The translations under genes and the position numbers were made by a program. The notes beneath the pieces are model-generated. The model did no database searches. It had not been told where the DNA came from and worked only from the letters and a program-made list of their open reading frames with translations. Below, in pieces: positions 5,772-54,825 of a stretch of 64,000 nucleotides of DNA. Source of the DNA: a virus (lineage: Duplodnaviria > Caudoviricetes). The DNA lies in the IMG/VR virus record IMGVR_UViG_3300037878_000134, positions 1-64,000 of that record; one strand, 5' to 3'. The first letter of the stretch is position 1, and every line of letters starts with the position of its first letter.

Positions 5772-7607
5772 GTGGCTGATGTTGGCGGCGATCCCAATCG
5801 CGAAGTTGCCATTGCCTTCACGGTCAAGGGCGACGCCGAGCAAAAGGCTAGCGGGCTAGCCCGCGCCTTCGCCGGCGTGCACCGGGCGGCCGACGCGGCC
5901 AAGGCACGCGTGAACGAAGTGGGTCGCAGCTTCGTGGTGGGCGCCGTTGGGGCCGCGGGGCTGACCCTCGGTCTGCGTGAGATCTGGGCGCAGTCGAAGG
6001 AAGTCAACTTGTCGATGGACGCGATGCAGAAGCGCATCGCGGGCTCCACCTTCGCGTTTGCGACCTGGAAGAAGGGCACGACCGGGCTCGAGAAGTGGCG
6101 CGAGTCCATGCGGGACGGCGTCGAAATCACCGAGAAGCTGGAGGGCGTGAGCCGCCGCCACAAGGTGTCGCGCGAGGAGCTGGTCGGGATCTACGCCAGT
6201 CAAGCGCAGATGAGCGAGCGCTACCGGCAGTCGCAGGCGCAGCAAATCGATTTCAGCGAGAAGCTGGCGGCCACCCAGAACGTGCTGGGCATCAGCGCCG
6301 AGGGCGCCGGCATGATGATCGCCCGAGCCGCGATGACCGGAGCGATTCAGCTCCGGACTCAGCTCGGGCGCCAACTGGCGGCCGGCGTCGGGGATCTGAA
6401 GGCCTTCAAACGCGCCTCGGAAGAAGTTCGTTTCGAGAAACTCAAGAAGGCGCTCGGCGACATGGTGCCGGCCTCGCAGGAGATGGGCAAGGGGATGAAG
6501 GGGGCACTCTTCGACTTGAAGGAATTCGGCGAGGAGGGGCTGCGGGATCTGACACGACCGATGTTCAGCCAGCAGACAAAGTCCCTGCGCGACTGGGCGG
6601 CCAACCTGACGAAGATTCGGGACGACGGCCAAAGCATCGTGGCCACGTACGGGGAGAAGCTCGCCAAGGCGTTCACGACCATCAAGGATGTCTCCGGCTC
6701 CATCGCGCAGCACTGGAAGCTCATCGCGGGCCTGTTCGTCGCGGGCAAGCTCGGCGGGATGGCGGGCGGGGCCATCCGGGCTTTCACCGCGCCCGCCGCA
6801 GGCGCAGGAGCCGCCGGCCTCTTGGGGGGCGGAACGGTCGGCAGCATGAGCATCCAGGCCGCCAACGTCGTGGTCAACTCGGCCGGCATGGGTGGCGCGA
6901 TCGGGGCCGCCACCAGCGCCGGCGTGACCAAGGCGACCTCCGGCGGGCTCGCGCGCTTCGCCAGCGGGCTCGCGGCGGGCGCCAGCAAGGCCTTCATCGC
7001 GGCCGAAGCCGTGGGGGCTTTGGCGGTTGCCGCGGCGGCCTGGGTTGACGAGTGGCAGACCGGAAAACTCAAGCAGCAGCAGGTGGCGCCCGTTCAGACC
7101 ATGAACGCCTTGCACGCCGGCATCACCGCCATGAAGACCGGGGGCGAGGAGCAGGCGCGGCACCTCAAGGGAGTCTCGGAAGCGTTCGGCCTCAAGGCTG
7201 GCCAGCACGTATCGGCCGCCGCCATCGAGGCCGGGCTGCGAACCATGCCTCTGACCGAAGCGCAGAAGCTGGCGCGCGGCTATGGGTTTTCGGGCCAGGT
7301 CTCGGCCAACGCCATGGGGGAATTCGCTCCCCACGTGGCTGCGCAAATTGCCAAGAACCTGAATGATCTCATCGATCAAGCCATGAAGGCGCACGGCGCG
7401 GCCTTCAAGGAGACCGAAGAGAAGTCCAACAAGGAGAAAGCCGCCCGGGCGGCCCCAGTCACCAACATCGGCGTAGTCAATCTCACCCAGGACTTCAAGG
7501 CCGACGATCCCGAGCGCATCTTCCACCGGGCGGCACGCGAGATGGTCTCGGAGCTCAACCAGCTCCATCAGCACCCCGACCACTCCCCCGCGGCGAGGCA
7601 CACCTAA
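5772..7607 (+). CDS. tape measure protein
   Basis: 611 aa, Ala/Gly-rich and helical; canonical position after the chaperones. Confidence 0.8.
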   Translation: MADVGGDPNREVAIAFTVKGDAEQKASGLARAFAGVHRAADAAKARVNEVGRSFVVGAVGAAGLTLGLREIWAQSKEVNLSMDAMQKRIAGSTFAFATWKKGTTGLEKWRESMRDGVEITEKLEGVSRRHKVSREELVGIYASQAQMSERYRQSQAQQIDFSEKLAATQNVLGISAEGAGMMIARAAMTGAIQLRTQLGRQLAAGVGDLKAFKRASEEVRFEKLKKALGDMVPASQEMGKGMKGALFDLKEFGEEGLRDLTRPMFSQQTKSLRDWAANLTKIRDDGQSIVATYGEKLAKAFTTIKDVSGSIAQHWKLIAGLFVAGKLGGMAGGAIRAFTAPAAGAGAAGLLGGGTVGSMSIQAANVVVNSAGMGGAIGAATSAGVTKATSGGLARFASGLAAGASKAFIAAEAVGALAVAAAAWVDEWQTGKLKQQQVAPVQTMNALHAGITAMKTGGEEQARHLKGVSEAFGLKAGQHVSAAAIEAGLRTMPLTEAQKLARGYGFSGQVSANAMGEFAPHVAAQIAKNLNDLIDQAMKAHGAAFKETEEKSNKEKAARAAPVTNIGVVNLTQDFKADDPERIFHRAAREMVSELNQLHQHPDHSPAARHT

Positions 7608-11996: not shown

Positions 11997-12790
11997 TGCC
12001 GCCCCTCGTGCTCTTTCAGATGGTCCGGGCGCTTTCGGTAGGGGGCCAGGTGGTGCGCGTGGTGTTCAACGCGGAGCCCAAGCACAAGAGCCCCGCGGCC
12101 TCTGACGATGCCCTGAACGGCTCGAACTACCAGGTGAGCGTTATCGCCGGCCAAGGCCAGCCCCCGCAGTCGGTCGGGGTGCACCCGGATGTCATCCCGT
12201 ACCCGGCCTTCGGCGTGTGGAGCAACCTAGAAGTCGCGGTGGATCTGCAGACCGATCGCCCTTTGGTCGTCGGGCTGCGCTACCGCGTGCTGGTGTCGTC
12301 CGCAATGGTCGCCCAGGACGGGCGCCAGCTCGCGCCGCCCTATACCTGGGAATTCGACGGGGAGGCTCGGCCCATCGTCACCCTGCAGCAGCGGGGCAAG
12401 ATGGGCCTCGTGGATCTGGCGAGCGATCCCGTCGGCGGCGGCATCATGGTCGACAGCTCGGGTGACTGGACCGCCGACAACGGCGACACGGTGGGCACCC
12501 GCAAGCGGTGCTTCCGGCGCGTGCTCACCCGCAAGGGCGGCTTCGCGCACCTGCAGAGCTACGGCCTCGACTACGACGTCAAGCAGCCCGCCACGACCAA
12601 CAGGCTCGCCGGTCTGCGCAGCGATATTCAGGCGGGCCTGCAGCAGGAGCCAGACGTGGACTCCGTCGCCACCCAGGTGAGCATGGATAGCCGGGGCTTT
12701 CTCACCCTCGGCATGCGGGTCAAGACCAAGCAGGGAATCAACGTCCCCGCGGTTCTGTCCGTTTCCGAGAATGGAGTCACTGTCCGATGA
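11996..12790 (+). CDS. baseplate wedge protein (gpW/gp25-like C-terminal domain)
   Basis: C-terminal RRVLTRKGGFAHLQSYG...IQAGLQQEPDV resembles gp25. Confidence 0.65.
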   Translation: MPPLVLFQMVRALSVGGQVVRVVFNAEPKHKSPAASDDALNGSNYQVSVIAGQGQPPQSVGVHPDVIPYPAFGVWSNLEVAVDLQTDRPLVVGLRYRVLVSSAMVAQDGRQLAPPYTWEFDGEARPIVTLQQRGKMGLVDLASDPVGGGIMVDSSGDWTADNGDTVGTRKRCFRRVLTRKGGFAHLQSYGLDYDVKQPATTNRLAGLRSDIQAGLQQEPDVDSVATQVSMDSRGFLTLGMRVKTKQGINVPAVLSVSENGVTVR

Positions 12791-13893
12791 ACCAATTCGC
12801 GACCAGAGCTGACCTGTTTCAGGTGAGTCGAGCAGCCATCGCGGCCACCCCGAACATCAAGATAAACCCCTCGGTGATCGATGTTCCCGGATCCGACTTG
12901 AACCTGGTTGTGGGCGTGCCCTCGGTCATGGGCGAGGAAGTCTCGGCCCGGGCCGCCATGGCACTGCGGGGAGCGTTCGCCGAGCTGGCGCGCGGCTCCG
13001 CGCTCGATCGGGTGCTGTTTGATCGCTACGGCCTGCTGCGCTTCTCCGCCCAGCCGGCGACGGTTGACCTCGTGTTGTCGCGCCCAGGACCAGGGCTGCT
13101 GACCGGCACCATCGACGCCGGATCGGTTATCCAGACTCCCGATGGCGTCCAGTTTGCTCTCGACAACGAGCTCACGTGGGGCTCTGGCGAGCTGGGCATC
13201 ACGACGCCCGGGACCGCGCTCGTCAATGGCTCGGGCGGCAACGTGGTTGCGGGGACCGTTACCTCGTGGGCCACCGCGCCCTTTGACCCGTCGATTGTAG
13301 TCACCAATCCCTTGCCGGCCTCGGGCGGCATTGATGCCGAAGACGACGTGCAGTTTCTCGGGCGGGCTCGCGGCTTCTTCCCCACCGTCGCACGTGGAAC
13401 ACTGCGAGCCATCGAGTTTGGCGCGAAGCAAGTCCCCGGTGTCGCAGTAGCCACCGCGACCGAGATCGTGAACCCGTCGAATGGCTATCCGGCGGCGTTC
13501 GTGCAGCTCGTGGTCGGTGATCAGCAAGGCAATGCCTCCTCAGCGCTCCTCACCAAGGTCGCCAACGCACTGCTGGCGTATCGGGCCGCCGGGATCTACG
13601 TCCAGGTCATTGGCGGTATCGTGCTTGCACAGGCGGTCCACTGGTTGCTGACCTTCGTGGCCGACACGGACGAGGCGCTGGCCATATCGCGCATTCAGGC
13701 GGTAACCGTGGCGGTCGCCCAGTTCCTGGCCCCTGGCGCGCCCCTGCTGCGCGCCTCGCTCATCAGCGCCGCGGCCAGTGTGCCCGGCGTCATAGTGAGC
13801 GATCGCTCGCTGGCCTACCCGGCGGGCGACGTGGTCCCGAGCAGCGGAAATCAGATGATCCGCGTAGCCATGGGGGATGTGACTTTCGCGTGA
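12787..13893 (+). CDS. baseplate J-like protein
   Basis: 368 aa; ATVDLVLSR...GGIDAEDDVQFLGRA...GTLRAIE motifs of gpJ. Confidence 0.85.
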   Translation: MNQFATRADLFQVSRAAIAATPNIKINPSVIDVPGSDLNLVVGVPSVMGEEVSARAAMALRGAFAELARGSALDRVLFDRYGLLRFSAQPATVDLVLSRPGPGLLTGTIDAGSVIQTPDGVQFALDNELTWGSGELGITTPGTALVNGSGGNVVAGTVTSWATAPFDPSIVVTNPLPASGGIDAEDDVQFLGRARGFFPTVARGTLRAIEFGAKQVPGVAVATATEIVNPSNGYPAAFVQLVVGDQQGNASSALLTKVANALLAYRAAGIYVQVIGGIVLAQAVHWLLTFVADTDEALAISRIQAVTVAVAQFLAPGAPLLRASLISAAASVPGVIVSDRSLAYPAGDVVPSSGNQMIRVAMGDVTFA

Positions 13894-15569
13894 CCACCCA
13901 GCCCCTCTCCCAAGCGGATCTGCTCGCGTTGCTGAGGCGCATCTGCGACCCGGGGTGGCTATCAGGCATGCTCGCCCAGCCCGACGGCCAGGCCATCATC
14001 AACGCCTGGCTCGCCGCGTTCGAAGCGACCAGCGTGGCAGTCTGTAGGCAGGTCGACGCCTCGATGATCTCGACGGCGCCCACCGGGTCACCGGGAGTTT
14101 GCACCCTGGTGCTCTCCCGGGCCGATACGACCGTCGACGACTACATCCTCCAGGGCTACACCTTCGTGACGAACCTGGGCGTGCAATTGGTGGTCGCGAC
14201 CCAGGTGCACGTCCTGGCCGGTCAGGCGACGGTGGCGTTGCCGCTCCTCACTCTTCGGCAGACGGACATCGTCAACACGGTCGAGCCGGCCTTCGATGAC
14301 GTGCTGAATCCCGGCGATTACCTGGAGCCCATTCTCGGCAGCGCCGACCCGTCGTGCGTGTTCTTCGACGCTCCCCACAACGCGGGCACGCTGACCTACG
14401 TTTCCTCGACCCCCATCACCGGCGCCACGGATGACTGGCTGTCGGCCCATGGCGAGGAGCGCGGCTGCAAGCGCCAGGAAGGCGAAGACGGGGAAGCCTA
14501 CCGCGCGCGGGTGCGGCTCCTGCCCGATGCGGTCAGCCCGCGGGCCGTTGCCAGAGCCCTGGACGGCGCTTGCCAACTGCTGCCAGAAAGATGGCTGGTG
14601 GAGCCGTTCGGGGACGGCGCCGATCCCCTTGTGCGGCTGGCCTTGCAGCTCGGCCGGTTCGACGTTCCGGCGTGCGACATGTGCGGCGAGACCATCACGC
14701 TCAGCGCGGCGCCCGCCACCGATTGGGCACCCGGAGACGTCATCACGGGCCAGACCAGTGGCGCTAGCGCTGTCGTGGTGGCAGAGGCCTCGATCCTGCT
14801 CTACTACATCAAGCAGCGCAGCGGGGCCTTCGCGCTCGGCGAGACGGTTGGCGTGACCGGCGTGCCCGCCAAGCTGGCAACTCAGAACGGCTCCCACCCC
14901 ATCGTCTCCCAGATCCCTTCCGGTTTCTGCGACGACTGGCTGGGCGATCCCGTACCCGACAAGCAGCCCATCGCGACCTGCGAGATGGAGGGCCTCCGGG
15001 AAAGCCGCGCCTACGTGCGGGTCGACTTGTTTGGCGATCTGCAAGATCCCGATGGCTCCGTGCTGTACTGCGATGATGGCGGGTACTGCGATGACGAGCT
15101 CTGGGGGTATCCCGACATCGAGGTCCATCCGGCGATCGGCGCGGCCAGCAAGGCGCTGCTCGATGAGCTTCGGGGCAAGCTCGCGGCCGGCGTGCAGTGG
15201 GACATCTATCTCGAGAACGGAACTCAGCTTGCCGCCTACGACTTCATCGCCGGCCCCACGGGGCCACTCGGGGTTCCCGTGTGGAGCTTGGCGGCGCCGC
15301 CCGGCAAGGCCTGGTACATCAAAGAGGGCCTGCTGACTGTTGTGAGCCTCGATCCGACCGAGGCCATGCAGGTGATCCTGACCTTGGCCGATGCCAGTCA
15401 GATCATCAGCCCCTGGACAAGTGGCGCCTTTCCCCTTCGGACCTTTGAGCTTGCCAAGCTCGGCTACTGCGGACAACCCGTCGTCCAGATCGACGCCTGG
15501 GCAAGGTTGTCCGGTCCGCTCGCCCTGAACTTACAGGGTAATTTCGACGCAATTCAGGCTACCCTCTGA
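13890..15569 (+). CDS. baseplate wedge protein (gpI-like, extended); contains the protospacer of CRISPR spacer 5
   Basis: Follows gpJ; HGEERGCKRQEGEDGEAYRARVR motif; 15320-15353 is identical to 54126-54159. Confidence 0.65.
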   Translation: MTTQPLSQADLLALLRRICDPGWLSGMLAQPDGQAIINAWLAAFEATSVAVCRQVDASMISTAPTGSPGVCTLVLSRADTTVDDYILQGYTFVTNLGVQLVVATQVHVLAGQATVALPLLTLRQTDIVNTVEPAFDDVLNPGDYLEPILGSADPSCVFFDAPHNAGTLTYVSSTPITGATDDWLSAHGEERGCKRQEGEDGEAYRARVRLLPDAVSPRAVARALDGACQLLPERWLVEPFGDGADPLVRLALQLGRFDVPACDMCGETITLSAAPATDWAPGDVITGQTSGASAVVVAEASILLYYIKQRSGAFALGETVGVTGVPAKLATQNGSHPIVSQIPSGFCDDWLGDPVPDKQPIATCEMEGLRESRAYVRVDLFGDLQDPDGSVLYCDDGGYCDDELWGYPDIEVHPAIGAASKALLDELRGKLAAGVQWDIYLENGTQLAAYDFIAGPTGPLGVPVWSLAAPPGKAWYIKEGLLTVVSLDPTEAMQVILTLADASQIISPWTSGAFPLRTFELAKLGYCGQPVVQIDAWARLSGPLALNLQGNFDAIQATL

Positions 15570-15579
15570 GGAGAACACC

Positions 15580-17148
15580 ATGGCCGGTTCCAAGACTCAC
15601 CTGATTGAAAATGCTCGCGAGATGTTGCTTTCCACCGACATCACGCGCATCGGAAAGTTGGCCGCGCGCGAGCAGCAGAGCGCCGACCGCGCCAAGGCGC
15701 TGCGCGCCGACTTCTACCTGCCGGGCAGCTTCGACGACTTCAGCGCTTCGGGGCGACTCGCGAACTTCCAAGCCATTCCGGGCGCGCTTTCCGCTCCCTC
15801 CCTGGAAGGACAAACGGGGACGTTCGATATGGTGCTGGGCCCTGGCGAAACCGAGTGCGACACCACCGATCTCGCGGATCCCGACGTCTCGCCCCATCAG
15901 GTGGCCCGCTGGGATCAGCAGACGATCTCGTGGCCGCTCGACGCCTACCCGGATGGGGCCGCGCCCAAAATCGCCACCATCTGCGTGGAGCCGACCGATG
16001 CGCAGACGGACGCGGTCAGTCGCAACATCTTGCTCGACCCGGCAAGCCGCAGCTTCGCTCCGCAGACGGTCTACAAGACCAGCAATCCCTCGGGCACCAT
16101 CTTCGTCGTCGCGGGCGCGGCTGCCGCGGTCCCCTTGCCTCCCGCGCTGCCCTCCAATTGCGTGGCGCTGTTCGACGTCTTCATGTTTCCCGGCACGACC
16201 CAGTCTTCCGACTTCCAGATCACCCGCCGCGGCTGGCGGCGCATCGAGTTCCCCGGCTCTTCCCAGCACGGCATTGTCAAGGGCTGCACTCCCGAGTGGG
16301 ACACGACCGACGAGACGAGCGGCTCACCCGCCTACATTCCGCTCGGCTACGTGCCCCATCGCCTCGTGATCGATGGAGAGCTGCTGACCTTCGGCTCACC
16401 CGCGGCGGGCGGGTTCGTCGTGGCGACGCCCGATACCAACAACCCCCCGGGCAGTGCGCCTCCCACCAATGACTTGCCCACCTACCTCTATCTTTGCGGC
16501 GGACGCTGGTTCCCCTGGTGTGGAGGTATCGCGGGCTCCGTGCCCTATCCCTACAACGCCGCGCCGGTCGTGTTGGTCGAAAGCCTGACACCGCCGGATC
16601 GCATGGGATACCCGACCGCCGCAATGGCCGTCGCGGGCGCTACCATCCCGAGAAACGGCGCTCTCTTCGTCGGCAATGGCTTCCTGGTGATCAACAGCAG
16701 CGTCCACAAGTGCTGCAGGATCGACGGGGATTGGATACACGCTCTCACCATGAACAGCGCGCTTGTGCCGTCGGTCCTACCGAACGCTTGTTTCAACGAG
16801 AGCCTGACGACTCTGCTCACAGGACCTGGCCAAGACGTTGCGGTCACCACAATGCCGGCGAACGCCACTATGGCAGATTTCGAGCTGCTCGGCTTCTTTT
16901 CGCCCTACGGCGGCGGCGCTGAGATCAGGGTCTTCCAAGAAGCACTGTCGGCGTCGCCCGATCTCCAAGTCGCCCGGGCTATCGAGGTGGTGAACTCTGC
17001 AGGGGGCGGTCAGGCATTGATGTCTTGGCGGGGCGCGATTCCGGCGGGCGGGCTGTTCTTCGTGATCAATGACTCATTCGCCCTCAGCGCGTCGATCATG
17101 CTCTACGCGCGCGCCTACAACATGAATCTGCCCCGCCTCGCTCGCTAG
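15580..17148 (+). CDS. tail fibre/baseplate-attached protein
   Basis: 522 aa after the wedge genes; RBS GAGGAG. Confidence 0.55.
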   Translation: MAGSKTHLIENAREMLLSTDITRIGKLAAREQQSADRAKALRADFYLPGSFDDFSASGRLANFQAIPGALSAPSLEGQTGTFDMVLGPGETECDTTDLADPDVSPHQVARWDQQTISWPLDAYPDGAAPKIATICVEPTDAQTDAVSRNILLDPASRSFAPQTVYKTSNPSGTIFVVAGAAAAVPLPPALPSNCVALFDVFMFPGTTQSSDFQITRRGWRRIEFPGSSQHGIVKGCTPEWDTTDETSGSPAYIPLGYVPHRLVIDGELLTFGSPAAGGFVVATPDTNNPPGSAPPTNDLPTYLYLCGGRWFPWCGGIAGSVPYPYNAAPVVLVESLTPPDRMGYPTAAMAVAGATIPRNGALFVGNGFLVINSSVHKCCRIDGDWIHALTMNSALVPSVLPNACFNESLTTLLTGPGQDVAVTTMPANATMADFELLGFFSPYGGGAEIRVFQEALSASPDLQVARAIEVVNSAGGGQALMSWRGAIPAGGLFFVINDSFALSASIMLYARAYNMNLPRLAR

Positions 17149-17156
17149 GAGTCGCC

Positions 17157-19388
17157 ATGGCGTTCTCATCCGTCACGGTCCTCTTCAGCAAAAACGCCGA
17201 CCCCCCGCAGTCGGGCTGGCGACAAGATCTCGTGCCCGGCAACACGGTCACCTGCTCGCTCTCGAGCACAATCGGCATCACCAGCTACCGCTGGCGGGTC
17301 ATCGGGCGCCCCGAGGGCTCGGCGGCCGGCGGGGCCGGAGCCGAGCCCCGCCCGCTCGGCTCTGGCGCGGCGGTATCCTTTACGGCCGACATCAATGGGA
17401 CCTACATCATCGAGTGCCTCATCAATGGCGGGGCACCGGACGCCACCATCGTGACTGGCGGCTGCGCCATCTTGGAGTCCATCGTCGATCCGCTCGGCCG
17501 TCCTTTGCGGCTCATCGGGCCCGGCGAAACCGACGAAGACATCTCGGATGTGGGCGTCGCCGAAGGTTCGACCAAGATGCTGAACCGCTGGCTGCGCAAG
17601 CTGGCGGCTGGTGGTGGTGGCGGTGGCGGCACCCTCGCGGTCGACTACAACCTGGGCACGTCAGCTGCGGATCAGACGCTCACGATTGCCGACAGCAAGG
17701 GCGGTCCGATCATCCTCGACGCTCAGGGAGTCGGCGGCAGCTTCACCGGCCTCTACGCGCTGCGGACCATCGTGCCCGCCGGCATGATGAGCAGTATGGG
17801 CGTGGGGTTTACTTGGAGCGGCGGTTTGGAGTTGGGACCGGACAACATTCTCATCGGGAACCCCGGTTACCCCCCGACAGCGACAGACGCGACCTGGGGG
17901 GTTTGCGTTGGCGGATGGTCCGCCATAGGCAAAGCCGGAGGGTGCAACGCTGCGACCGCAGTCGGCTCCTTTACCCAGGCTTTGGATGCAAACGCCAGTA
18001 CCTTCGGCGCGTTCTCGTTGGCGGCGGGTCTGCTCTCTTCTGCGCTGGGGGCTTACTCGTCGGCTAACGATGAGCGCAGCATAGCGGTGGGGCCGTTGTC
18101 CTCGGCCTCCGGCTTGGCTTCCATTGCGATGGGAGATCATGCCTATACCGACTTTTTCGAGAGCGTTGCCATTGGTCAATGGGCCGCAGCCATCAGCCCC
18201 GAGACCATAGCCATTGGCCCCGCCACTCTCGCGGGCGCGCCTGTCGGCGGCGATAGCGCAGTCGCGATCAATGCCATTGCACGAAGCACACAGTCACTTG
18301 CGATCAGCGGTCTGGTTGGGACTGACGCGGCTTTCGCAACCGCCGTGGGCAACACATCTGTCGTTCGCGATGGCGCCGCTTACGCGCTGGCCCTCGGCTA
18401 CAACGCCCTCGTTGATATTGATGCCAGTCAGGGGATCGCAATTCTCGGAACGGTCACCGCCGTGGACGGGATTTCGGTGGGCCTCTGGTCGCAAGTGGAC
18501 AGCGTTGGCGCAATAGCCATCGGGCCCGGTGCCTATGCCGGAGCTCTCATCGGTGGCGAGAACGCTGTCGCCATCAACGGCGACGCGGAGGGTACGGCAG
18601 CCGTGGCCATTGGCGGAACTGTGTTGGTCGACAATTCGATCGCCATTGCCGCCTCGACGTCTCCCGAGGGGGCGTCTTGTCTAGGCATCCGGAGCGTTGG
18701 CTTGGGGTCGGACTTTCGCCCCAACAACAACTACGACGTGACCATCGGGTACCATCTTGCCACCCCCAACAACCGGGCCAGCTTTTCAGACCCCATCGGG
18801 GACGGCTACAACGTCTACGTGGGGCACAACATCGCGGGCCCCGCGGGCTATGGATACTCAGACGTCAGCCAGGTCGCGATCGGCGCCGACATCGGAATCG
18901 ACAGCAGCCACACCACCGCGATCGGCTCCGGCTCGCTCATTAGTGATCTTTCCGACTGGGCGATCGCCCTCAGCGGCTACGTGGGCGAAAGCGCGCCCAA
19001 CGCCTTTGCCGTGCTGGGGACAGTAGCCGCATCGGCGGATTCGTCACTGGCCATCGGCAACATGTCCGAAGCCGATTCGCCCTTCTGCATTGCCTTGGGG
19101 GCTTTCGCGGTTGCGGCGCCCGAGGGCACCGGATGGATGGTGGTCGGCGATAGCGGCACCCACGGAACCGCGGGCGCCGCCGCGATTCACCAATTCATCG
19201 TCCGAGGCTATAACGGCGGCGCTATCGACACCTTGAAGGTCTCGGACGCGCCATCAAATGACTACCAGACAGGTCTGACCATCCCGTACCGGTTCTCGGG
19301 CGGGGCTGTCGCCGCCGAAGACGTCTACGCCAAAGACGGCCCGCCCGAAGGCGCGCTCATTCTCTACATACCAGGACCCCCCTCCTAG
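17157..19388 (+). CDS. tail fibre with YadA-head-like (Hep/Hag) repeats
   Basis: 743 aa; repeated SIAVG/SIAMG/SVAIG/AVAIG beta-roll motifs; Gly linker. Confidence 0.7.
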   Translation: MAFSSVTVLFSKNADPPQSGWRQDLVPGNTVTCSLSSTIGITSYRWRVIGRPEGSAAGGAGAEPRPLGSGAAVSFTADINGTYIIECLINGGAPDATIVTGGCAILESIVDPLGRPLRLIGPGETDEDISDVGVAEGSTKMLNRWLRKLAAGGGGGGGTLAVDYNLGTSAADQTLTIADSKGGPIILDAQGVGGSFTGLYALRTIVPAGMMSSMGVGFTWSGGLELGPDNILIGNPGYPPTATDATWGVCVGGWSAIGKAGGCNAATAVGSFTQALDANASTFGAFSLAAGLLSSALGAYSSANDERSIAVGPLSSASGLASIAMGDHAYTDFFESVAIGQWAAAISPETIAIGPATLAGAPVGGDSAVAINAIARSTQSLAISGLVGTDAAFATAVGNTSVVRDGAAYALALGYNALVDIDASQGIAILGTVTAVDGISVGLWSQVDSVGAIAIGPGAYAGALIGGENAVAINGDAEGTAAVAIGGTVLVDNSIAIAASTSPEGASCLGIRSVGLGSDFRPNNNYDVTIGYHLATPNNRASFSDPIGDGYNVYVGHNIAGPAGYGYSDVSQVAIGADIGIDSSHTTAIGSGSLISDLSDWAIALSGYVGESAPNAFAVLGTVAASADSSLAIGNMSEADSPFCIALGAFAVAAPEGTGWMVVGDSGTHGTAGAAAIHQFIVRGYNGGAIDTLKVSDAPSNDYQTGLTIPYRFSGGAVAAEDVYAKDGPPEGALILYIPGPPS

Positions 19389-39959: not shown

Positions 39960-40112
39960 CTGTTTCGACGTCACTACCCCGAAAGGAAAGCAATTGTCTG
40001 ACATGACCACACAGGCGCTTACGGAACAGTCGCGCAGTTGTGGAGAAGTTGTTGATTGGGACACACTCGGCGCCCCAGTCGCTTTCTCTTACCGCTCGAT
40101 CCTGGTTGCCGG

Positions 40113-40571
40113 ATGAAATCATCACTGAAGAAAACGGCCCCGAACCTCATCACTGCCGCCCAGTTCGCGCGGATCCTCTCCCACACGCCCTTGGCGACAT
40201 TCCGGGTGCTGCTCCTGCTCTTGTGGGACACGGGCATGCGTGTCGGCGAGGCACTCCCTTTGCGCCGGGTGCAGTTTTCCCGACGGGGAAACGGCGGAGG
40301 AGCAATCGAGCTTGGGCCCGACAGGAAGACCGGGCGAGCGCGGACGGTGTTTCTCACGAGACGCGCCGCCAAAGCACTCGAATCCTTGCCCGATCGCGGG
40401 CCCTACTTTTTCTGTGGGCGCGACGGCGAGCCGCTCGGCTACACGTACCTGTACAGAATCTTCGCAGTCGCCGTCAAAAGGGCAAAAGTGCCGTGGGCTC
40501 CGGGCCTGCACACACTGAGGAAGTCCGCGTTCTACCGGATGACTCACCACTCGATCCTGGTTGCAAAATGA
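40113..40571 (+). CDS. internally deleted duplicate of the adjacent integrase
   Basis: N-terminal KSSLKKTAPNLITAAQ fused directly to FARILSH...DTGMRVGE...HTLRKS; lacks the core-binding domain and the catalytic His/Tyr. Confidence 0.75.
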   Translation: MKSSLKKTAPNLITAAQFARILSHTPLATFRVLLLLLWDTGMRVGEALPLRRVQFSRRGNGGGAIELGPDRKTGRARTVFLTRRAAKALESLPDRGPYFFCGRDGEPLGYTYLYRIFAVAVKRAKVPWAPGLHTLRKSAFYRMTHHSILVAK

Positions 40572-41656
40572 AGCCGAAATCATCGCTCAGCAAAACAGAT
40601 CCCAACCTCATTGCCGCCGCTCAGCTGCTCCTGTCCCACGTCCAGGACCAACTGGAGGAATCGCCGACCATAAAGGACTTGTGGGAGAAGTATTTCGCCT
40701 CGGAGGGACAGCATCTCCGTAGTGCAGATAGACTGAGCGCGGCCTGGAAGTTCTTTCACGCGATCCGTGGCACCGACGGCATCCCGTTCGAGAAGCGCCA
40801 GGCGCTCACGATCGATAATGCCGTCATCGAAGAATTCCGGGCGGCCATGCGCATATCGCCGCTCAGCGGCCGTGCGACCAAGCCGGCGACCCGAAACCGA
40901 ATGCTAAGCGTGGTTCAGCGCGTGCTCCACTGGTCGCATCAGAATGGCCTGATCTCGCACATGCCGATTGCGGGAGTCCACCTCGAAGCGGAGCACAACA
41001 TCCCGAAGACAAAATTGCGCACGGACGAGGAATTCGGGCGGATCCTCGCCCACATACCGGTAGCGACGTTCCGAGTGCTGCTTTTGCTGCTTTGGGATAC
41101 CGGTATGCGTGTCGGCGAGGCTTTGAAACTGCGGCGGGTGCAATTCTCCCCACGCATTAACGGGGGTGGAGTCGTCGAGCTCGGGCGCGACGAAACCAAG
41201 ACCGGGCGAGCGCGGACCGTGTTTCTCACGAGACGCGTCGCCAAGGCGCTCGAATCCTTGCCCGATCGCGGGCCCTACTTTTTCTGCAAGCCCAATGGCG
41301 GCACCTTCAGCTACGCCTATCTGTACAGGATATTTGCGTTGGCGGCCGAGAGGGCGAAGTTGCCCTGCGCTCCCGGCGAGACGATCCACCTGCACACGCT
41401 CAGGCATTCCGCGCTCTACCGGATGCGGACGCTCTGCCACTGGCCCCAGCAGCTCTGCATGCGCCAGTCCGGTCACACGACAACCAGCGCGTTTTTTCGC
41501 TACGGCATCGCTGACGAGCAGGAGATGACCACGGCCATGGACACGTATGAAAGCGTGCTTCAGGGCCGACTCCCACCGCGACCAGCGCACAACCCCCACG
41601 CGATGGAGAGCACGGAAGACTTGGCAAACGCAGACGTACTGGCCGCTCAAAAATAG
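40568..41656 (+). CDS. int: tyrosine recombinase/integrase
   Basis: DTGMRVGE (R), TKTG (K), HTLRH (HxxR), SGH (H), FRYG (Y). Confidence 0.9.
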   Translation: MKPKSSLSKTDPNLIAAAQLLLSHVQDQLEESPTIKDLWEKYFASEGQHLRSADRLSAAWKFFHAIRGTDGIPFEKRQALTIDNAVIEEFRAAMRISPLSGRATKPATRNRMLSVVQRVLHWSHQNGLISHMPIAGVHLEAEHNIPKTKLRTDEEFGRILAHIPVATFRVLLLLLWDTGMRVGEALKLRRVQFSPRINGGGVVELGRDETKTGRARTVFLTRRVAKALESLPDRGPYFFCKPNGGTFSYAYLYRIFALAAERAKLPCAPGETIHLHTLRHSALYRMRTLCHWPQQLCMRQSGHTTTSAFFRYGIADEQEMTTAMDTYESVLQGRLPPRPAHNPHAMESTEDLANADVLAAQK

Positions 41657-41842: not shown

Positions 41843-42236
41843 TTGCCAAAGCCTGCTCAGGGGGCCCTGCCTTGAGACGGACTCGACTGCTTGCCGAGCA
41901 CGGCTCAGACCGCCTCACAACGCTTGCTCAGGGAGCTACGCCTTGAGACATGCTGCCACATCCTGCAGCCATCCCGGCCCCGATGGGTCGCAACGCCCGC
42001 TCAGGGGGCCCTGCCTTGAGACGTACTGGACTGCTTGGCCAGCATGGCCCGGCCCGCACCACAAAGCCTGCTCAGGGGGCCATGTCTTGAGACACCGAAT
42101 AGGTGATCTCGTGGTGCGCCGGATGGTCGCGCGCAACGCCCGCTCAGGGGGCCCTGCCTTGAGACAGTCGACCTGGCCGTCCATCATCGCAGCCGCGGCA
42201 GCTCCTAATGCCCGCTCAAGGGGCCACGCCTTGAGA
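41843..42236 (+). CRISPR. satellite CRISPR array 2: 6 variant repeats, 5 spacers
   Basis: Repeats at 41843, 41914, 41987, 42058, 42130, 42202 share the core GCTCAGGGGGC-NNN-GCCTTGAGAC; spacers 35-37 nt. Confidence 0.88.
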
Positions 42237-42484
42237 TCCGCAGATGTGGCAGTGAGAGAGGCGGAGTTGAGTGCTGTTTTTCAGCACAAGATAAAGTGCA
42301 TTCGGACTGCATTTGGTCAAATGCCGAAAATAGCACTCTACTTTCCTCTACAACTCCGCGAATTCATTGGGGCCAGCCGCGGATGGGGTCGCCGATGCGG
42401 TCCCGCACATCAACTGCGCAGGGGCGATGCAAGGCCCCCAATTCTTCGCCCGCTCGCCCGCGCGCTGGCTATCATCGACAGAAC

Positions 42485-50927: not shown

Positions 50928-52024
50928 CAAAGACCAGCATTTCCTGGTGTCTCGGTCCCGACGGCGCGCCGGGCTTTTCGTGGAACCCCGTCGTAGGATG
51001 CTCGCCTGTCAGCGCCGGGTGCGCGCACTGCTGGGCCGCTCGCCTGGCCAGCACGCGGCTGGCACACTTGCCCGAGTACAAGGGACTGACCGAGCCAACG
51101 GTCATAATGTCCGCCAACCCGCCCGGAAGTGGCCCGGGCCCGTCAATCTGGACCGGCCAGACCCGCTTCCTGCCCGACCGCCTAGGCGAGCCGCTGCGCA
51201 GACGGCAGCCATCGGGGATCGCGGTGGGGCTGATGGGTGACATCGGCCATCCGACGATCCGAGATGTTGATAGGTTCCGCATCTGGCTAACGATGGCCAG
51301 GGCTTTTTGGCATCAGTTTTTCGTCCTCACGAAGAGACCGGCAGAGCTTTCGCGCTTCATTGAGCGATGGTGCAGCGTAGAGGAGGACACCTTGGAGCCT
51401 CGGCTAGTGCGGGGCCCAGAAGAGGTCAGACGATGTTACCGGAGTGAGCGGGCCAGACTCTTCGCCGACATGCTCGAAGGGATGGGAGAGCCTCCGCCTG
51501 GAGCTGCCTACCCGACGTTTGACTGGATGGAGGGCCCGAGGTGGTTCGAGGCGATCTTGGCCAACGTGGCGATCGGCGTCTCCATCGAGGACCAGGCCAC
51601 GGCGAATGACCGCATGCTGGAGCTAGAAGAAACGCCGGCCGCCTTGCGCTTTATCTCGGCAGAGCCGCTTCTCGAGGATCTCCAGCGCATCGACTTGAGC
51701 GGGATTTCGTGGGTGATCGTCGGGGGAGAATCAGGGCCCAACGCCCGGCCATGTCACGTTGATTGGATCCGCTCCGTCATCAGAGAGTGTCGCGAAGCAG
51801 GCGTTGCCTGCTGGGTGAAACAACTCGGCACGAACTGCGTGGACCGCAACGACGCTGGTTTCGACGGGGCCGAAGGCGAATGGCCAGCAGGCACACGAAC
51901 CCGAGGCAGCGAGAGGTTTCAGGGCGCGCCGGTGCACATTCGCTTCCGCGACCGCGCCGGTGCCGACCCGTCCGAATGGCCCGAAGATCTCAAAGTGAGA
52001 CAAACGCTGGAGGCTCGCCGATGA
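50924..52024 (+). CDS. DUF5131 (phage Gp37/Gp68) family protein
   Basis: SISW...WNPVVGCSPVSAGCAHCWA; LTKRP; FISAEPLL; WVIVGGESG; CWVKQLG. Confidence 0.85.
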   Translation: MTKTSISWCLGPDGAPGFSWNPVVGCSPVSAGCAHCWAARLASTRLAHLPEYKGLTEPTVIMSANPPGSGPGPSIWTGQTRFLPDRLGEPLRRRQPSGIAVGLMGDIGHPTIRDVDRFRIWLTMARAFWHQFFVLTKRPAELSRFIERWCSVEEDTLEPRLVRGPEEVRRCYRSERARLFADMLEGMGEPPPGAAYPTFDWMEGPRWFEAILANVAIGVSIEDQATANDRMLELEETPAALRFISAEPLLEDLQRIDLSGISWVIVGGESGPNARPCHVDWIRSVIRECREAGVACWVKQLGTNCVDRNDAGFDGAEGEWPAGTRTRGSERFQGAPVHIRFRDRAGADPSEWPEDLKVRQTLEARR

Positions 52025-53838
52025 AACGAAAAACTAGTCACCTACCGACCCGGATCTACAGCTACGGCTGCCGCCTCCCAACCGAGGGGGCGCAGATCAT
52101 CGAAGAGCAGCTCAAGCTCGCCCGCGTCTATCACAACAAGCTCTTGGAAATTGAGCTTGCGCGACGGGCGGCCGTGAGGACGGCGATGGCGTCCTGCCCT
52201 GACGTGGCGACGGCCGCAGCGGAGGTTGCGGAGATCGATCAAAAAATCGAGGCCGAACGCGTGGTGATCAAGGCAGCTCGGCAGGCGGCTCGATCCGGGG
52301 CGGTCGATGTGCGGGCGAACAAAGAGCGATTGAAAGAGCTCTTCGTGGAAGTCAAGGCCGCGCGGCAAGCCCTCAAAGCGGCAAAGACCGCCAGCCGTAC
52401 CCCGCAGATGCTGGCGAAATTCAAGTCGGCCCAGGAGACGGCAAACCAAGCCGTGCGCGACGCGCGCGCGATCTGCGGCGTGTACTGGGGTACATACTTG
52501 CTGGTCGAGCAGGAGATCGAGGCAGCCCGCAAGAGCAAGACGGATCCCCAATTCCGCCGGTGGACCGGCACAGGACGCATCGGCGTCGAGTTGATGCACG
52601 GCCTGTCAGTTGCCGATCTCATGGCCGGGAAAGACACTCGGCTGCAGATCCACATGACCCCGGGCGCAAGCAAGCGGAGCCAGAGCATGGCCGTGGTCCG
52701 GATCCGCGTGGGATCCGCCGGTCGCGATCCAATCTGGGCCGCGCTCCCGTTCCGCCTGCACCGCCCCTTGCCAGCCGACGGCCGGGTGAAGTGGGCTTGG
52801 ATTCATCGCACGTTCAAGGGCCGGTGGGTCAACTGGGATCTGCAGATCGTACTCGAGGCCGCCTCATTCGCGGTGCCTGAACGCCCAGCCCACGATGGCG
52901 GCGTGGTGGCGCTCGATCTGGGCTGGCGCGCGCGACAGTCTACTGCGGGCGATGGTTCGCAGACCATTCGGGTCGGCTACTGGTGCGACGACCGCGGCCA
53001 GCACGGCGAGCTTGTTATGCCGGCCGATCTCAAGGGCCGCCTGGAGCACGCCAACAGTCTGCGGGCAATCGAAGACCGCAACTTCGACGCCGCGAAAGCG
53101 CGATTGATAGAATGGCTCAAGGAGCACACAGCTCCGGAGGGCATAGATCTGGCGAATCTCGCGGCCTGGAAATCCGCGAAGCGGTTGGGTCGGACGGTGT
53201 CCGAATGGGAGAATCTGGGCGAGGTGCCCTGCGACTTGCTGGCCTGGTGGAAGCAGCATCGCCACCTCTACGATTGGGAAAGCTCGGAAAGGGCCCGCGC
53301 GCTGAACGCTCGGAAGAACCACTACCGGAACATCGCCGCGCAACTCACGACTACCTACGCCGTCTTGGTGCTCGAAGACTTCGACATGCGCGGCGTGGTC
53401 GAGCTGAACCAGCCCGAGCACAAGGAAGACGATGCGGTCAAGCCCGCCCGGCGCAACCGGGTGTTCGCGGCGCCGTCGGAGTTTCGCCTGGCGCTCAAGT
53501 CGGCCGCGCCGCTGCGCGGTTGTCGCATCGCCGAATTGGCCTGCGCGTTGACAACCCAGCCCTGCCACGTGTGCGGAGAGAGCGAGCGGTGGGACGCGGC
53601 GAAGTCTGTCTGGCACACGTGTCGCAACGGGCACCAGTGGGATCAGGATTACAACGCGGCTCGCAATCTACTCGGTGTCTACGCGAGCGGCGATGCGCTG
53701 AAGCGCGAACCCCCGTCGGACAGAGGGAAAAAGAGCGACGAAAAACCGAGCCTCGCGCACACGGAGGTGCAAGATAGCGAAACCACGGGCGAATCTCTGG
53801 TGCCCGTTGCAATGCCTGCTCAGGGGGCTGTGCCTTGA
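52021..53838 (+). CDS. cas12m: compact type V CRISPR effector, Cas12m-like (V-U1/V-M), 605 aa
   Basis: RuvC-I VALDLGWR (D299), RuvC-II LVLEDFD (E452), Zn finger CHVC..CRNGH, RuvC-III DQDYNAA (D543); long N-terminal helical insert; abuts a CRISPR array. Confidence 0.82.
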   Translation: MKRKTSHLPTRIYSYGCRLPTEGAQIIEEQLKLARVYHNKLLEIELARRAAVRTAMASCPDVATAAAEVAEIDQKIEAERVVIKAARQAARSGAVDVRANKERLKELFVEVKAARQALKAAKTASRTPQMLAKFKSAQETANQAVRDARAICGVYWGTYLLVEQEIEAARKSKTDPQFRRWTGTGRIGVELMHGLSVADLMAGKDTRLQIHMTPGASKRSQSMAVVRIRVGSAGRDPIWAALPFRLHRPLPADGRVKWAWIHRTFKGRWVNWDLQIVLEAASFAVPERPAHDGGVVALDLGWRARQSTAGDGSQTIRVGYWCDDRGQHGELVMPADLKGRLEHANSLRAIEDRNFDAAKARLIEWLKEHTAPEGIDLANLAAWKSAKRLGRTVSEWENLGEVPCDLLAWWKQHRHLYDWESSERARALNARKNHYRNIAAQLTTTYAVLVLEDFDMRGVVELNQPEHKEDDAVKPARRNRVFAAPSEFRLALKSAAPLRGCRIAELACALTTQPCHVCGESERWDAAKSVWHTCRNGHQWDQDYNAARNLLGVYASGDALKREPPSDRGKKSDEKPSLAHTEVQDSETTGESLVPVAMPAQGAVP

Positions 53839-54825
53839 GACCATCAACGACGGGACCGTCGAAAAGATCGGCGAACGTTGCAATGCCTGCTCAGGGGGCT
53901 GTGCCTTGAGACCATCGGCGTGGCCAGGTTCGTCCGAGTGAGTGACGGTTGCAATGCCTGCTCAGGGGGCTGTGCCTTGAGACACGGGCGGGCAGAACAG
54001 CCCACGGGCGCGAGGAGTTGCAATGCCTGCTCAGGGGGCTGTGCCTTGAGACTTCTTGGGGGTGCCGGGGGGAGCATTCCCCTTCCCGGTTGCAATGCCT
54101 GCTCAGGGGGCTGTGCCTTGAGACACAAAGAGGGCCTGCTGACTGTTGTGAGCCTCGATGTTGCAATGCCTGCTCAGGGGGCTGTGCCTTGAGACAGCCA
54201 CCGTTGCCGCCGCTCCCACCGCCGCCCGGTTGCAATGCCTGCTCAGGGGGCTTTGCCTTGAGACCCCGAATTGCTGGAGGCCGGCCCGGATCGGATCGTC
54301 CACCTGGAAATGCCTGCTCAGGGGGCAATGCCTTGAGACTGCCCGACCTTTGCCCGCCAGATCGCAAAGCCTGCGCAAGGGGCTGTGCCTTGAGACCAGA
54401 AGTCGAGTGCATCGAGGTGGGCAGTAGGTCGTTGCAATGCCTGCTCAGGGGGCTGTGCCTTGAGACACCACCAACTATTTCGTGGGGCCGGATCCCGCAG
54501 GGTTGCAATGCCTGCTCAGGGGGCTGTGCCTTGAGACGTCCATGTCCGATTGGTACCAAGACCGACCGACACGTTGCAATGCCTGCTCAGGGGGCTGTGC
54601 CTTGAGACACCTCCCCGCTCAGCTTGCTCGCTGTTTCGTCCAGTCTCTCAACGCCTGCTCAGGGGGCCACGCCTTGAGACACGATGTAGTGGGAATCGCC
54701 CAGCCGCACGGCCTCCGACCCGCAACGCCCGCTCAGGGGGCTATGCCTTGAGACCAGCGTGCGACTGCTGCCAGTCGGGCAGCTTCCTGCTCAGAAAGCC
54801 TGCTCAAGGGGCTACGCCTTGAGAC
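53806..54825 (+). CRISPR. main CRISPR array: 15 repeats, 14 spacers
   Basis: 36-bp repeat GTTGCAATGCCTGCTCAGGGGGCTGTGCCTTGAGAC at 53806, 53877, 53948, 54017, 54089, 54160, 54229, 54304, 54361, 54431, 54502, 54573, 54645, 54719, 54790; spacers 33-39 nt (one of 21 nt). Confidence 0.97.

Follow-up and report, generated by a model that had tools for sequence, protein, structure and literature searches.

The stretch analysed here (the window) is the first 64 kb (64,000 nucleotides) of the 80,138-bp phage record IMGVR_UViG_3300037878_000134 (Duplodnaviria; Caudoviricetes), a genome that encodes a compact CRISPR effector of the Cas12m family together with repeat-spacer arrays. One spacer of the array adjoining the effector gene, B5, is nearly identical to part of a structural gene of the phage itself. 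The features on which the analysis depends are listed below in window coordinates.

54125..54159, + strand: spacer B5, the self-matching guide, fifth counted from the cas12m end, with perfect repeats on either side.
15319..15353, + strand: self-protospacer, 34/35 identical to spacer B5 and encoding (I)KEGLLTVVSLD.
15313..15318, + strand: 5' flank GGTACA, in the place of a type V protospacer-adjacent motif (PAM), comprising Trp475-Tyr476 and the first base of Ile477.
13890..15569, + strand: target gene, 559 amino acids, a baseplate-wedge-class protein by position and fold, without a Pfam family.
52021..53838, + strand: cas12m, 605 amino acids, with a GGAGG ribosome-binding site, an ATGA overlap with the upstream DUF5131 gene and a stop codon inside repeat 1.
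53806..54825, + strand: array B, with 14 spacers set between 15 repeats of 36 nt, of which numbers 1-7 and 10-12 are perfect or nearly so and numbers 8-9 and 13-15 degenerate.
12787..13893, + strand: Baseplate_J gene (PF04865, E 3e-20; phrog_6 baseplate wedge), directly upstream of the target gene, overlapping its start and in the same operon.

Spacer B5 (ACAAAGAGGG...CTCGAT, 35 nt) sits exactly between two perfect 36-nt repeats, and the sole difference between it and the protospacer is at position 1, where the spacer has A and the target T. A search allowing up to three mismatches returned two sites, the spacer itself and 15319-15353, and no such match arose in 100 dinucleotide-preserving shuffles, which confirms the self-match described in an earlier sequence-only reading of this DNA. 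The protospacer is located within the open reading frame at 13890-15569 (+), about 250 nt before the end of the gene, and B5 has the sense of the coding strand. When all of the approximately 33 usable spacers were compared with the genome after masking the arrays, B5 reached 34/35 and every other spacer scored at or below its own shuffles; for ordinary spacers of 33-39 nt other than B5 this amounted to 20-25 matches, the shuffle level. Because B5 alone among these spacers is self-like, the array system as a whole is aimed neither at the phage itself nor at sequence shared with its kin, and an anti-sibling or self-regulatory use of the whole array was rejected on the same count. The 25-nt core of the protospacer and spacer had no other copy in the JGI metagenomes, IMG/VR or the GTDB genomes, collections from which near relatives may be missing.

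At the thresholds used, Pfam, PHROG and NCBIfam yielded no family for the target protein. Its AlphaFold model, built with 39 homologues, is confident at residues 1-210 and 445-559 and poor in the middle, and the top ten Foldseek hits for this model are all myovirus baseplate chains (phi812, Mu, Pa193, XM1, A-1(L) and phiCD508), with E values of 4e-05 to 7e-04 and low TM-scores of 0.12-0.24. The model and the genomic setting make "baseplate gene" a reasonable label. The sequence-only reading had called the gene gpI-like; the baseplate part of this description stands, through synteny after Baseplate_J and the Foldseek result, and the family part does not, as the resemblance to gpI is one of position and fold and is not matched by a sequence family. 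The gene is essential-looking and is followed by fibre-like genes at 15580-19388. Within the protein, the protospacer site falls on W-[YLHM]-[IL]-[KRQ]-E-G-L-[LV]-T, a motif of the C-terminal beta domain and its most conserved stretch across some 40 homologues. No promoter-like site was found at or near the target, which is coding DNA in the middle of an operon. A contig from a Polyangia metagenome-assembled genome (L008), which encodes a distant homologue of the target protein, has 14 consecutive bases in common with spacer B5 at the same motif (REGLLT; L008:5038-5051), so that within this high-GC group the motif is conserved even in DNA.

The effector exhibits near-full-length homology to structurally characterised Cas12m proteins, with matches to PDB 23vw (E 1.7e-70, residues 13-557), Cas12m2 (8hhl, E 2.5e-23) and GoCas12m (8pm4, E 2.5e-17) and to Cas12u1 in PADLOC (E 2.8e-97), which supports the family assignment made in the sequence-only reading. 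Alignment to 23vw places the RuvC triad at D299 (ALDLG), E452 (VLEDF) and D543 (DQDYN), and the zinc-ribbon TNB domain is recognised by PF07282 (E 5e-09). Cas12m proteins with D-E-D, H-D-D and N-D-D triads have been shown alike to bind DNA in a PAM-dependent manner and not to cut it (PMC11013384). This behaviour is established for 6-8 orthologs, and silencing by binding works inside coding regions too; by analogy, the phage Cas12m is expected to bind DNA without cutting. Neither cas1 (PF01867) nor cas2 (PF09827) had a match in the whole 80-kb genome, in which the controls were detected.

The CRISPR RNA (crRNA) has + strand sense, which is also that of the target gene's coding strand, since four lines of evidence agree: the invariance of the 3' part of the repeat, the stem and pseudoknot, the PmCas12m-like position of the stem and the polarity of the array. 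The invariant portion of the repeat is its 3' 28 nt, which adjoins the spacer. Pairing of repeat positions 14-20 with 28-34 (a 7-bp stem) and of 9-11 with 21-23 (a 3-bp pseudoknot) holds in 99.1% of cells across 35 repeat variants, lies above slid controls and includes two double-sided compensatory changes, and stem positions -23 to -20 with -3 to -6 match the description of the PmCas12m crRNA. The degenerate repeats and a spacer shared with a sibling phage are found at the far end of array B. The earlier proposal that the crRNA equals the coding strand and pairs with the template strand is thus supported. In orthologous repeats on two contigs of 98 kb and 85 kb (L010:11817-11998 and L011:11816-12425), the pseudoknot arm changes from GCC/GGC to CCC/GGG and AAC/GTT, a clean covariation that supports the pseudoknot.

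Immediately upstream of the protospacer, positions -7 to -1 read TGGTACA, with ACA at -3 to -1 and no T at -2. The sequence-only reading had pointed out both that the flank is GGTACA and not TTN and that the mismatch is PAM-proximal, and both points hold. The PAMs of characterised Cas12m proteins have been given as TTN, YTN, YTTS, TTV or "T- and C-rich", all with T at -2 and a pyrimidine at -3, and ACA at the target is of none of these types. Relatives keep A at -3 through the same codons (flanks ATGGTATC in L001 and CTGGTACT in L008), and in kin position -2 alone is free to vary, as C or T. As the Trp-Tyr codons fix most of the flank, neither the carrier nor its close kin would be predicted to have a YTN/TTN-type PAM at this site. 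For MmCas12m and PmCas12m, a single mismatch in the first 11-12 nt abolishes activity; B5 does not pair perfectly over the PAM-proximal 11-12 nt, a requirement known from these two proteins for that segment and not for position 1 specifically. The PAM of the phage Cas12m could not be derived from other protospacers, none being detectable for the other spacers here or for those of six related arrays. Spacers of arrays B, D and L004 had no match in INPHARED phages, those of array B had none in PLSDB plasmids, the cores of spacers B1 and B10 had none in IMG/VR, and the spacers of the six related arrays (L002-L004, L009-L012) had none in the phage genome or in any of the fetched loci.

The identity of the mismatched base indicates which side has changed. 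Codon 477 (ATC, Ile) has T15319 as its second base, and its residue is Ile or Leu in all of the ~40 homologues; the second base of Ile and Leu codons is always T, and the A of the spacer would give Asn. Because T is held in place by an Ile or Leu codon in every homologue, the A at position 1 most likely originated on the spacer side, or when the spacer was integrated, and is the derived state. With T codon-fixed in kin, no functional kin allele is expected to match B5 better than the gene of the carrier does, and the altered base in the spacer would reduce the effect of the guide on kin to the same extent. The mismatch as an escape mutation in the target was rejected on this codon constraint.

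A repeat scan found four co-oriented arrays of one repeat family, with 38 repeats and the ~33 usable spacers, served by one effector gene. The features bearing on the history of these arrays are as follows.

40040..41656, + strand: tyrosine integrase (PF00589, above cut-off).
41843..42237, + strand: array A, with 6 diverged repeats and no self-like spacer, located downstream of the integrase gene.
54755..54789, + strand: spacer B14, the oldest of array B and the only one in common with the sibling array on contig L009.
60424..60531, + strand: array C, 2 repeats and one spacer.
Genome 71802-72792 (L005:7802-8792), beyond the window: array D, 15 repeats.

The presence of the tyrosine integrase indicates that the phage is temperate.

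Sibling sequences were informative about both the integrity of the record and the age of B5. Identical copies of the target protein (in its 90% cluster) and of the Cas12m (in its own cluster) are both encoded on an independent ENA/Logan contig of 80,081 bp, the only other record of either. A sibling of the target protein in that 90% cluster, P0055, has 20 differences, none of them in residues 464-498, and is encoded on a 45,161-bp JGI contig that also bears a sibling Cas12m, P0059 (92% identical). Because target and Cas12m occur together on the 80,081-bp contig and, as sibling alleles, on the 45,161-bp contig, an assembly chimera appears unlikely, and the caveat to that effect in the sequence-only reading was not borne out by these independent assemblies. 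A search for short C-terminal fragments covering the sibling target site gave no match. The array on L009, a further P0059-bearing contig, consists of eight repeats and seven spacers (L009:3220-3742), the last spacer and terminal repeat of which are B14 and repeat 15 of array B. The remaining spacers are private to each lineage (13 in array B, six in L009), and array B thus gains spacers at its cas12m end. B5 is absent from L009 and was therefore acquired after the two lineages split, making it recent and lineage-specific. Guide and target are not conserved together in the one sibling available, which is without B5 though P0055 keeps the peptide, and none of the L009 spacers matches the phage genome. 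Such polarised turnover in the absence of cas1 and cas2 implies that the adaptation machinery would have to come from another source. Related cas12m and array modules of the same repeat family were also found on mobile-element-like contigs (L002/L004, L003 and L010-L012), with no cas1 or cas2 near cas12m in any of these, and both cas12m and the repeats are absent from G001, a more distantly related phage whose target protein is 66% identical.

Taken together, B5 is probably a tolerated and disabled self or kin pick-up that has little or no present function and is neither a regulator nor a working weapon. This reading starts from the match itself, the effector family, the guide orientation, the absence of B5 from the sibling array and the codon constraint on the target, and from these we infer the source of the spacer, its acquisition in trans and its lack of binding. 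B5 would have been copied fairly recently, in this lineage only, from the DNA of the phage itself or of a near-identical kin phage, and would have been added as the array grew at its cas12m-proximal end by adaptation proteins that are not encoded by the phage and were presumably supplied in trans. It would have survived because Cas12m binds DNA and blocks transcription and does not cut. Provided that the phage Cas12m depends on a PAM at the 5' side and on perfect pairing in the PAM-proximal seed, the ACA flank and the spacer-side mismatch at position 1 would fail both, and the B5 crRNA-Cas12m complex would most likely bind the baseplate gene weakly or not at all. The self-match would thus be tolerated because of a non-cutting effector, the absence of a usable PAM at the site and a seed mismatch in the guide. 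Even residual binding would be expected to cost little, as the late genes are silent in the lysogen, B5 is one of ~33 guides and a replicating genome presents many copies of the target.

Several observations weigh against so neutral an interpretation. A lone mismatch falling at position 1 of 35 has a chance of about 3% if it is a single random mutation, which hints at selection, for attenuation or tuning, and not at pure neutrality. B5 is otherwise perfect across 34 nt, has perfect repeats around it and is not decayed, and its pairing with the template strand at a conserved motif of an essential late gene is as expected of a useful guide. The PAM argument could also prove less restrictive for this protein: in a low-confidence pairwise alignment, the residues with which Cas12m2 reads TT (Y141, N156, Q195 and Q197) are D, L, E and M in the phage Cas12m, with W152 alone retained. 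Since the TT-reading residues are not conserved, ACA or TACA could be a valid PAM for the phage enzyme.

It is because the position of the mismatch, the strand and the conserved motif argue against pure neutrality that two functional explanations retain some weight, each related to one of the alternatives put forward in the sequence-only reading and each weakened by the present results. The first, which we consider unlikely, is that B5 was taken from superinfecting relatives and remains active on them in a lysogen, blocking their baseplate and tail-fibre operon while sparing the copy of the carrier. Virus-borne arrays directed at close relatives, with an altered locus in the carrier, are known (SPV1/SPV2, PMC6858448); the phage is temperate, siblings are present in the same kinds of samples, the motif under the guide is the least mutable one of an essential gene, and the fast turnover of array B resembles that of an arms race. 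Against this, it is the spacer that carries the distinguishing base: homologues must all have T at position 1, so kin are never a better match than the carrier, and kin share the non-PAM flank fixed by Trp-Tyr. No other spacer is even partly similar to the genome, as would be expected if kin were the usual source, the spacers of the sibling do not match this phage, and no perfect protospacer occurred in the collections searched, from which near relatives may be missing. The earlier version of this idea, in which B5 attacks a sibling and the carrier escapes, is weakened by the same facts, namely the odd base in the spacer, the flank shared by kin and the sibling spacers without a match here.

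A built-in regulator is less probable still. Here Cas12m and B5 would form a deliberately weakened roadblock on the template strand that throttles the distal baseplate and tail-fibre genes. This is consistent with the ability of Cas12m to silence by binding, coding regions included, and with the coding-strand sense of the guide, which is the effective orientation for dCas12a; the target is also positioned 250 nt before the end of the gene preceding the fibre-like genes at 15580-19388, and the position-1 mismatch could tune the strength of the block. Non-cutting type IV-A systems borne by mobile genetic elements regulate genes through natural self-targeting spacers (cited in PMC11656645). In its most explicit form, to which we assign an equally low likelihood, Cas12m-B5 would bind the baseplate gene of its own genome through a non-canonical, TACA-compatible PAM, with the mismatch tuning affinity, and would determine how strongly, or when, the distal baseplate and tail-fibre genes are transcribed. 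Against such regulation, the sibling with the same target peptide has no B5, and this type of phage therefore works without it; a single guide among ~33 is self-directed; the target shows no promoter-like site; its flank resembles none of the known PAMs, and in the two orthologs tested binding is lost on a seed mismatch; and B5 is one of 14 guides in a long co-transcribed array, with no dedicated expression. These points, above all the sibling without B5, the lone self-like spacer, the missing promoter-like site and the PAM-less flank with its position-1 mismatch, weaken the regulatory proposal of the sequence-only reading. An artefact, whether an assembly chimera or a mis-called array, in which spacer and target do not belong to one genome, is highly improbable. 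The record is a metagenome assembly, which leaves room for such an error, but the ENA/Logan contig of 80,081 bp has both target and Cas12m, and the 45,161-bp JGI contig has sibling alleles of the two; the 80,138-bp genome is one contig, circular or terminally repeated, whose ends overlap by 128 bp (classed as direct terminal repeats, 100% complete); its GC content is even; and B5 is a standard 35-nt unit between perfect repeats.

The phage system closely resembles the known type V-M CRISPR-Cas12m systems (MmCas12m2, GoCas12m, MsCas12m and PmCas12m; PDB 8hhl, 8pm4 and 23vw) in the full-length homology of its effector with RuvC and zinc-ribbon TNB domains, in its 36-nt repeat with a stem and pseudoknot at the crRNA positions of PmCas12m and Cas12m2, in its lack of adaptation genes and in the array directly downstream. 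It differs from them in its temperate-phage carrier, in its four dispersed arrays, in the loss of conservation at the PAM-reading residues of Cas12m2 and in having one spacer that matches an essential gene of the carrier itself.

Self-targeting spacers in bacterial and archaeal arrays were reportedly interpreted by Stern and colleagues in 2010 as accidents of autoimmunity. B5 resembles these in being a single self-matching spacer with a defect on the PAM or seed side that is not conserved in the nearest relative, whereas here the carrier is a phage and the effector is non-cutting, so that self-targeting would be non-lethal and could persist without inactivation of the system.

The MV-1 myxophage, a temperate and Polyangiales-associated phage, was reported as the first to encode a Cas12m, with one array described and no protospacer for any of its eight spacers (bioRxiv 10.64898/2026.09.14.751636). 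The two phages are alike in being temperate, in their origin from samples of an engineered or wastewater type, in the suggestion of a Polyangiales-type host, and in having a Cas12m of ~610 amino acids with a D-E-D triad, an adjacent array and no cas1, cas2 or cas4. The present genome has four arrays and one spacer with a protospacer, which is in the phage itself, and its RuvC residues (D299/E452/D543, versus D305/E463/D555 in MV-1) show that the proteins are related and not the same. It appears to belong to the same broad group as MV-1 without being the same genome. The mini-CRISPR arrays of SPV1 and SPV2 have been linked to interviral conflict, with a perfect target in the rival and a mutated or deleted locus in the carrier (PMC6858448). 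The phage system is similar to these as a virus-encoded array without adaptation genes that holds a spacer sequence from the same virus group; in contrast, the locus of the carrier is intact here, the change is in the spacer and no better-matching rival is known. The nuclease-free type IV-A systems borne by mobile genetic elements acquire spacers in trans and were shown experimentally to regulate host genes through natural self-targeting spacers (cited in PMC11656645). They have in common with the phage system a binding-only interference, the lack of an adaptation module of their own, array turnover and a natural spacer against DNA of the carrying cell or element, and they differ in effector class, in having a host gene as the target and in the experimental demonstration of regulation, which is hypothetical for B5.

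Phage-encoded Cas12m has been described so far in a single 2026 preprint without spacer targets, and for B5, a spacer of a phage Cas12m array, a target is identified: an essential structural gene of the phage itself. If the guide is inert, binding-only CRISPR would let a virus carry an anti-self memory that would be lethal under a cutting effector, and the fast turnover of arrays in a phage without adaptation genes raises the question of which machinery inserts the spacers. If it is active, the locus would be a natural case of a virus using CRISPR interference on its own late genes. Either way, it offers a compact D-E-D Cas12m with a natural guide and a natural target.

The surrounding sequences gave further observations on the effector and the arrays. 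The sibling Cas12m proteins P0058 and P0059 differ at a handful of positions, apart from an unrelated C-terminal tail of ~45 residues (about 552-597; window about 53674-53811) that precedes the repeat-encoded end, which suggests a replaced or fast-evolving linker. The cas12m frame itself ends within the first repeat (53806-53838), which encodes its last residues (..MPAQGAVP), so that the 3' end of the gene doubles as the array leader; a repeat-encoded end is also found in the sibling (L009:3220-3252) and in a 45%-identical ortholog (L002, near 6028-6055). The repeats of the four arrays vary chiefly in the first 8 nt and the loop, and the stem and pseudoknot remain paired. Spacers A1 (41879-41913) and A3 (42023-42057) are identical to each other at 27/35 positions, either because one unit was duplicated and has diverged or because both were acquired from homologous sites in related targets. 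Array D contains irregular units (genome 71985-71996, 72327-72328, 72365-72379 and 72488-72543) with spacers of 12, 2, 15 and 56 nt, a sign that an old array has undergone deletions and fusions, though its repeats keep their structure.

Metagenomes yielded well over a hundred further Cas12m homologues (P0060-P0178) at 31-59% identity, many of them on contigs of 75-110 kb and some beside integrases; phage-borne Cas12m may be much commoner than the single published report suggests. Beside the related cas12m on L011 (L011:2915-9921) are nucleotidyltransferase/HEPN-type toxin-antitoxin pairs and faint AbiEii matches, and a weak AcrVA2-like match is found ~9 kb upstream of cas12m on L010 (L010:114-1109), surroundings that look like defence and counter-defence islands.

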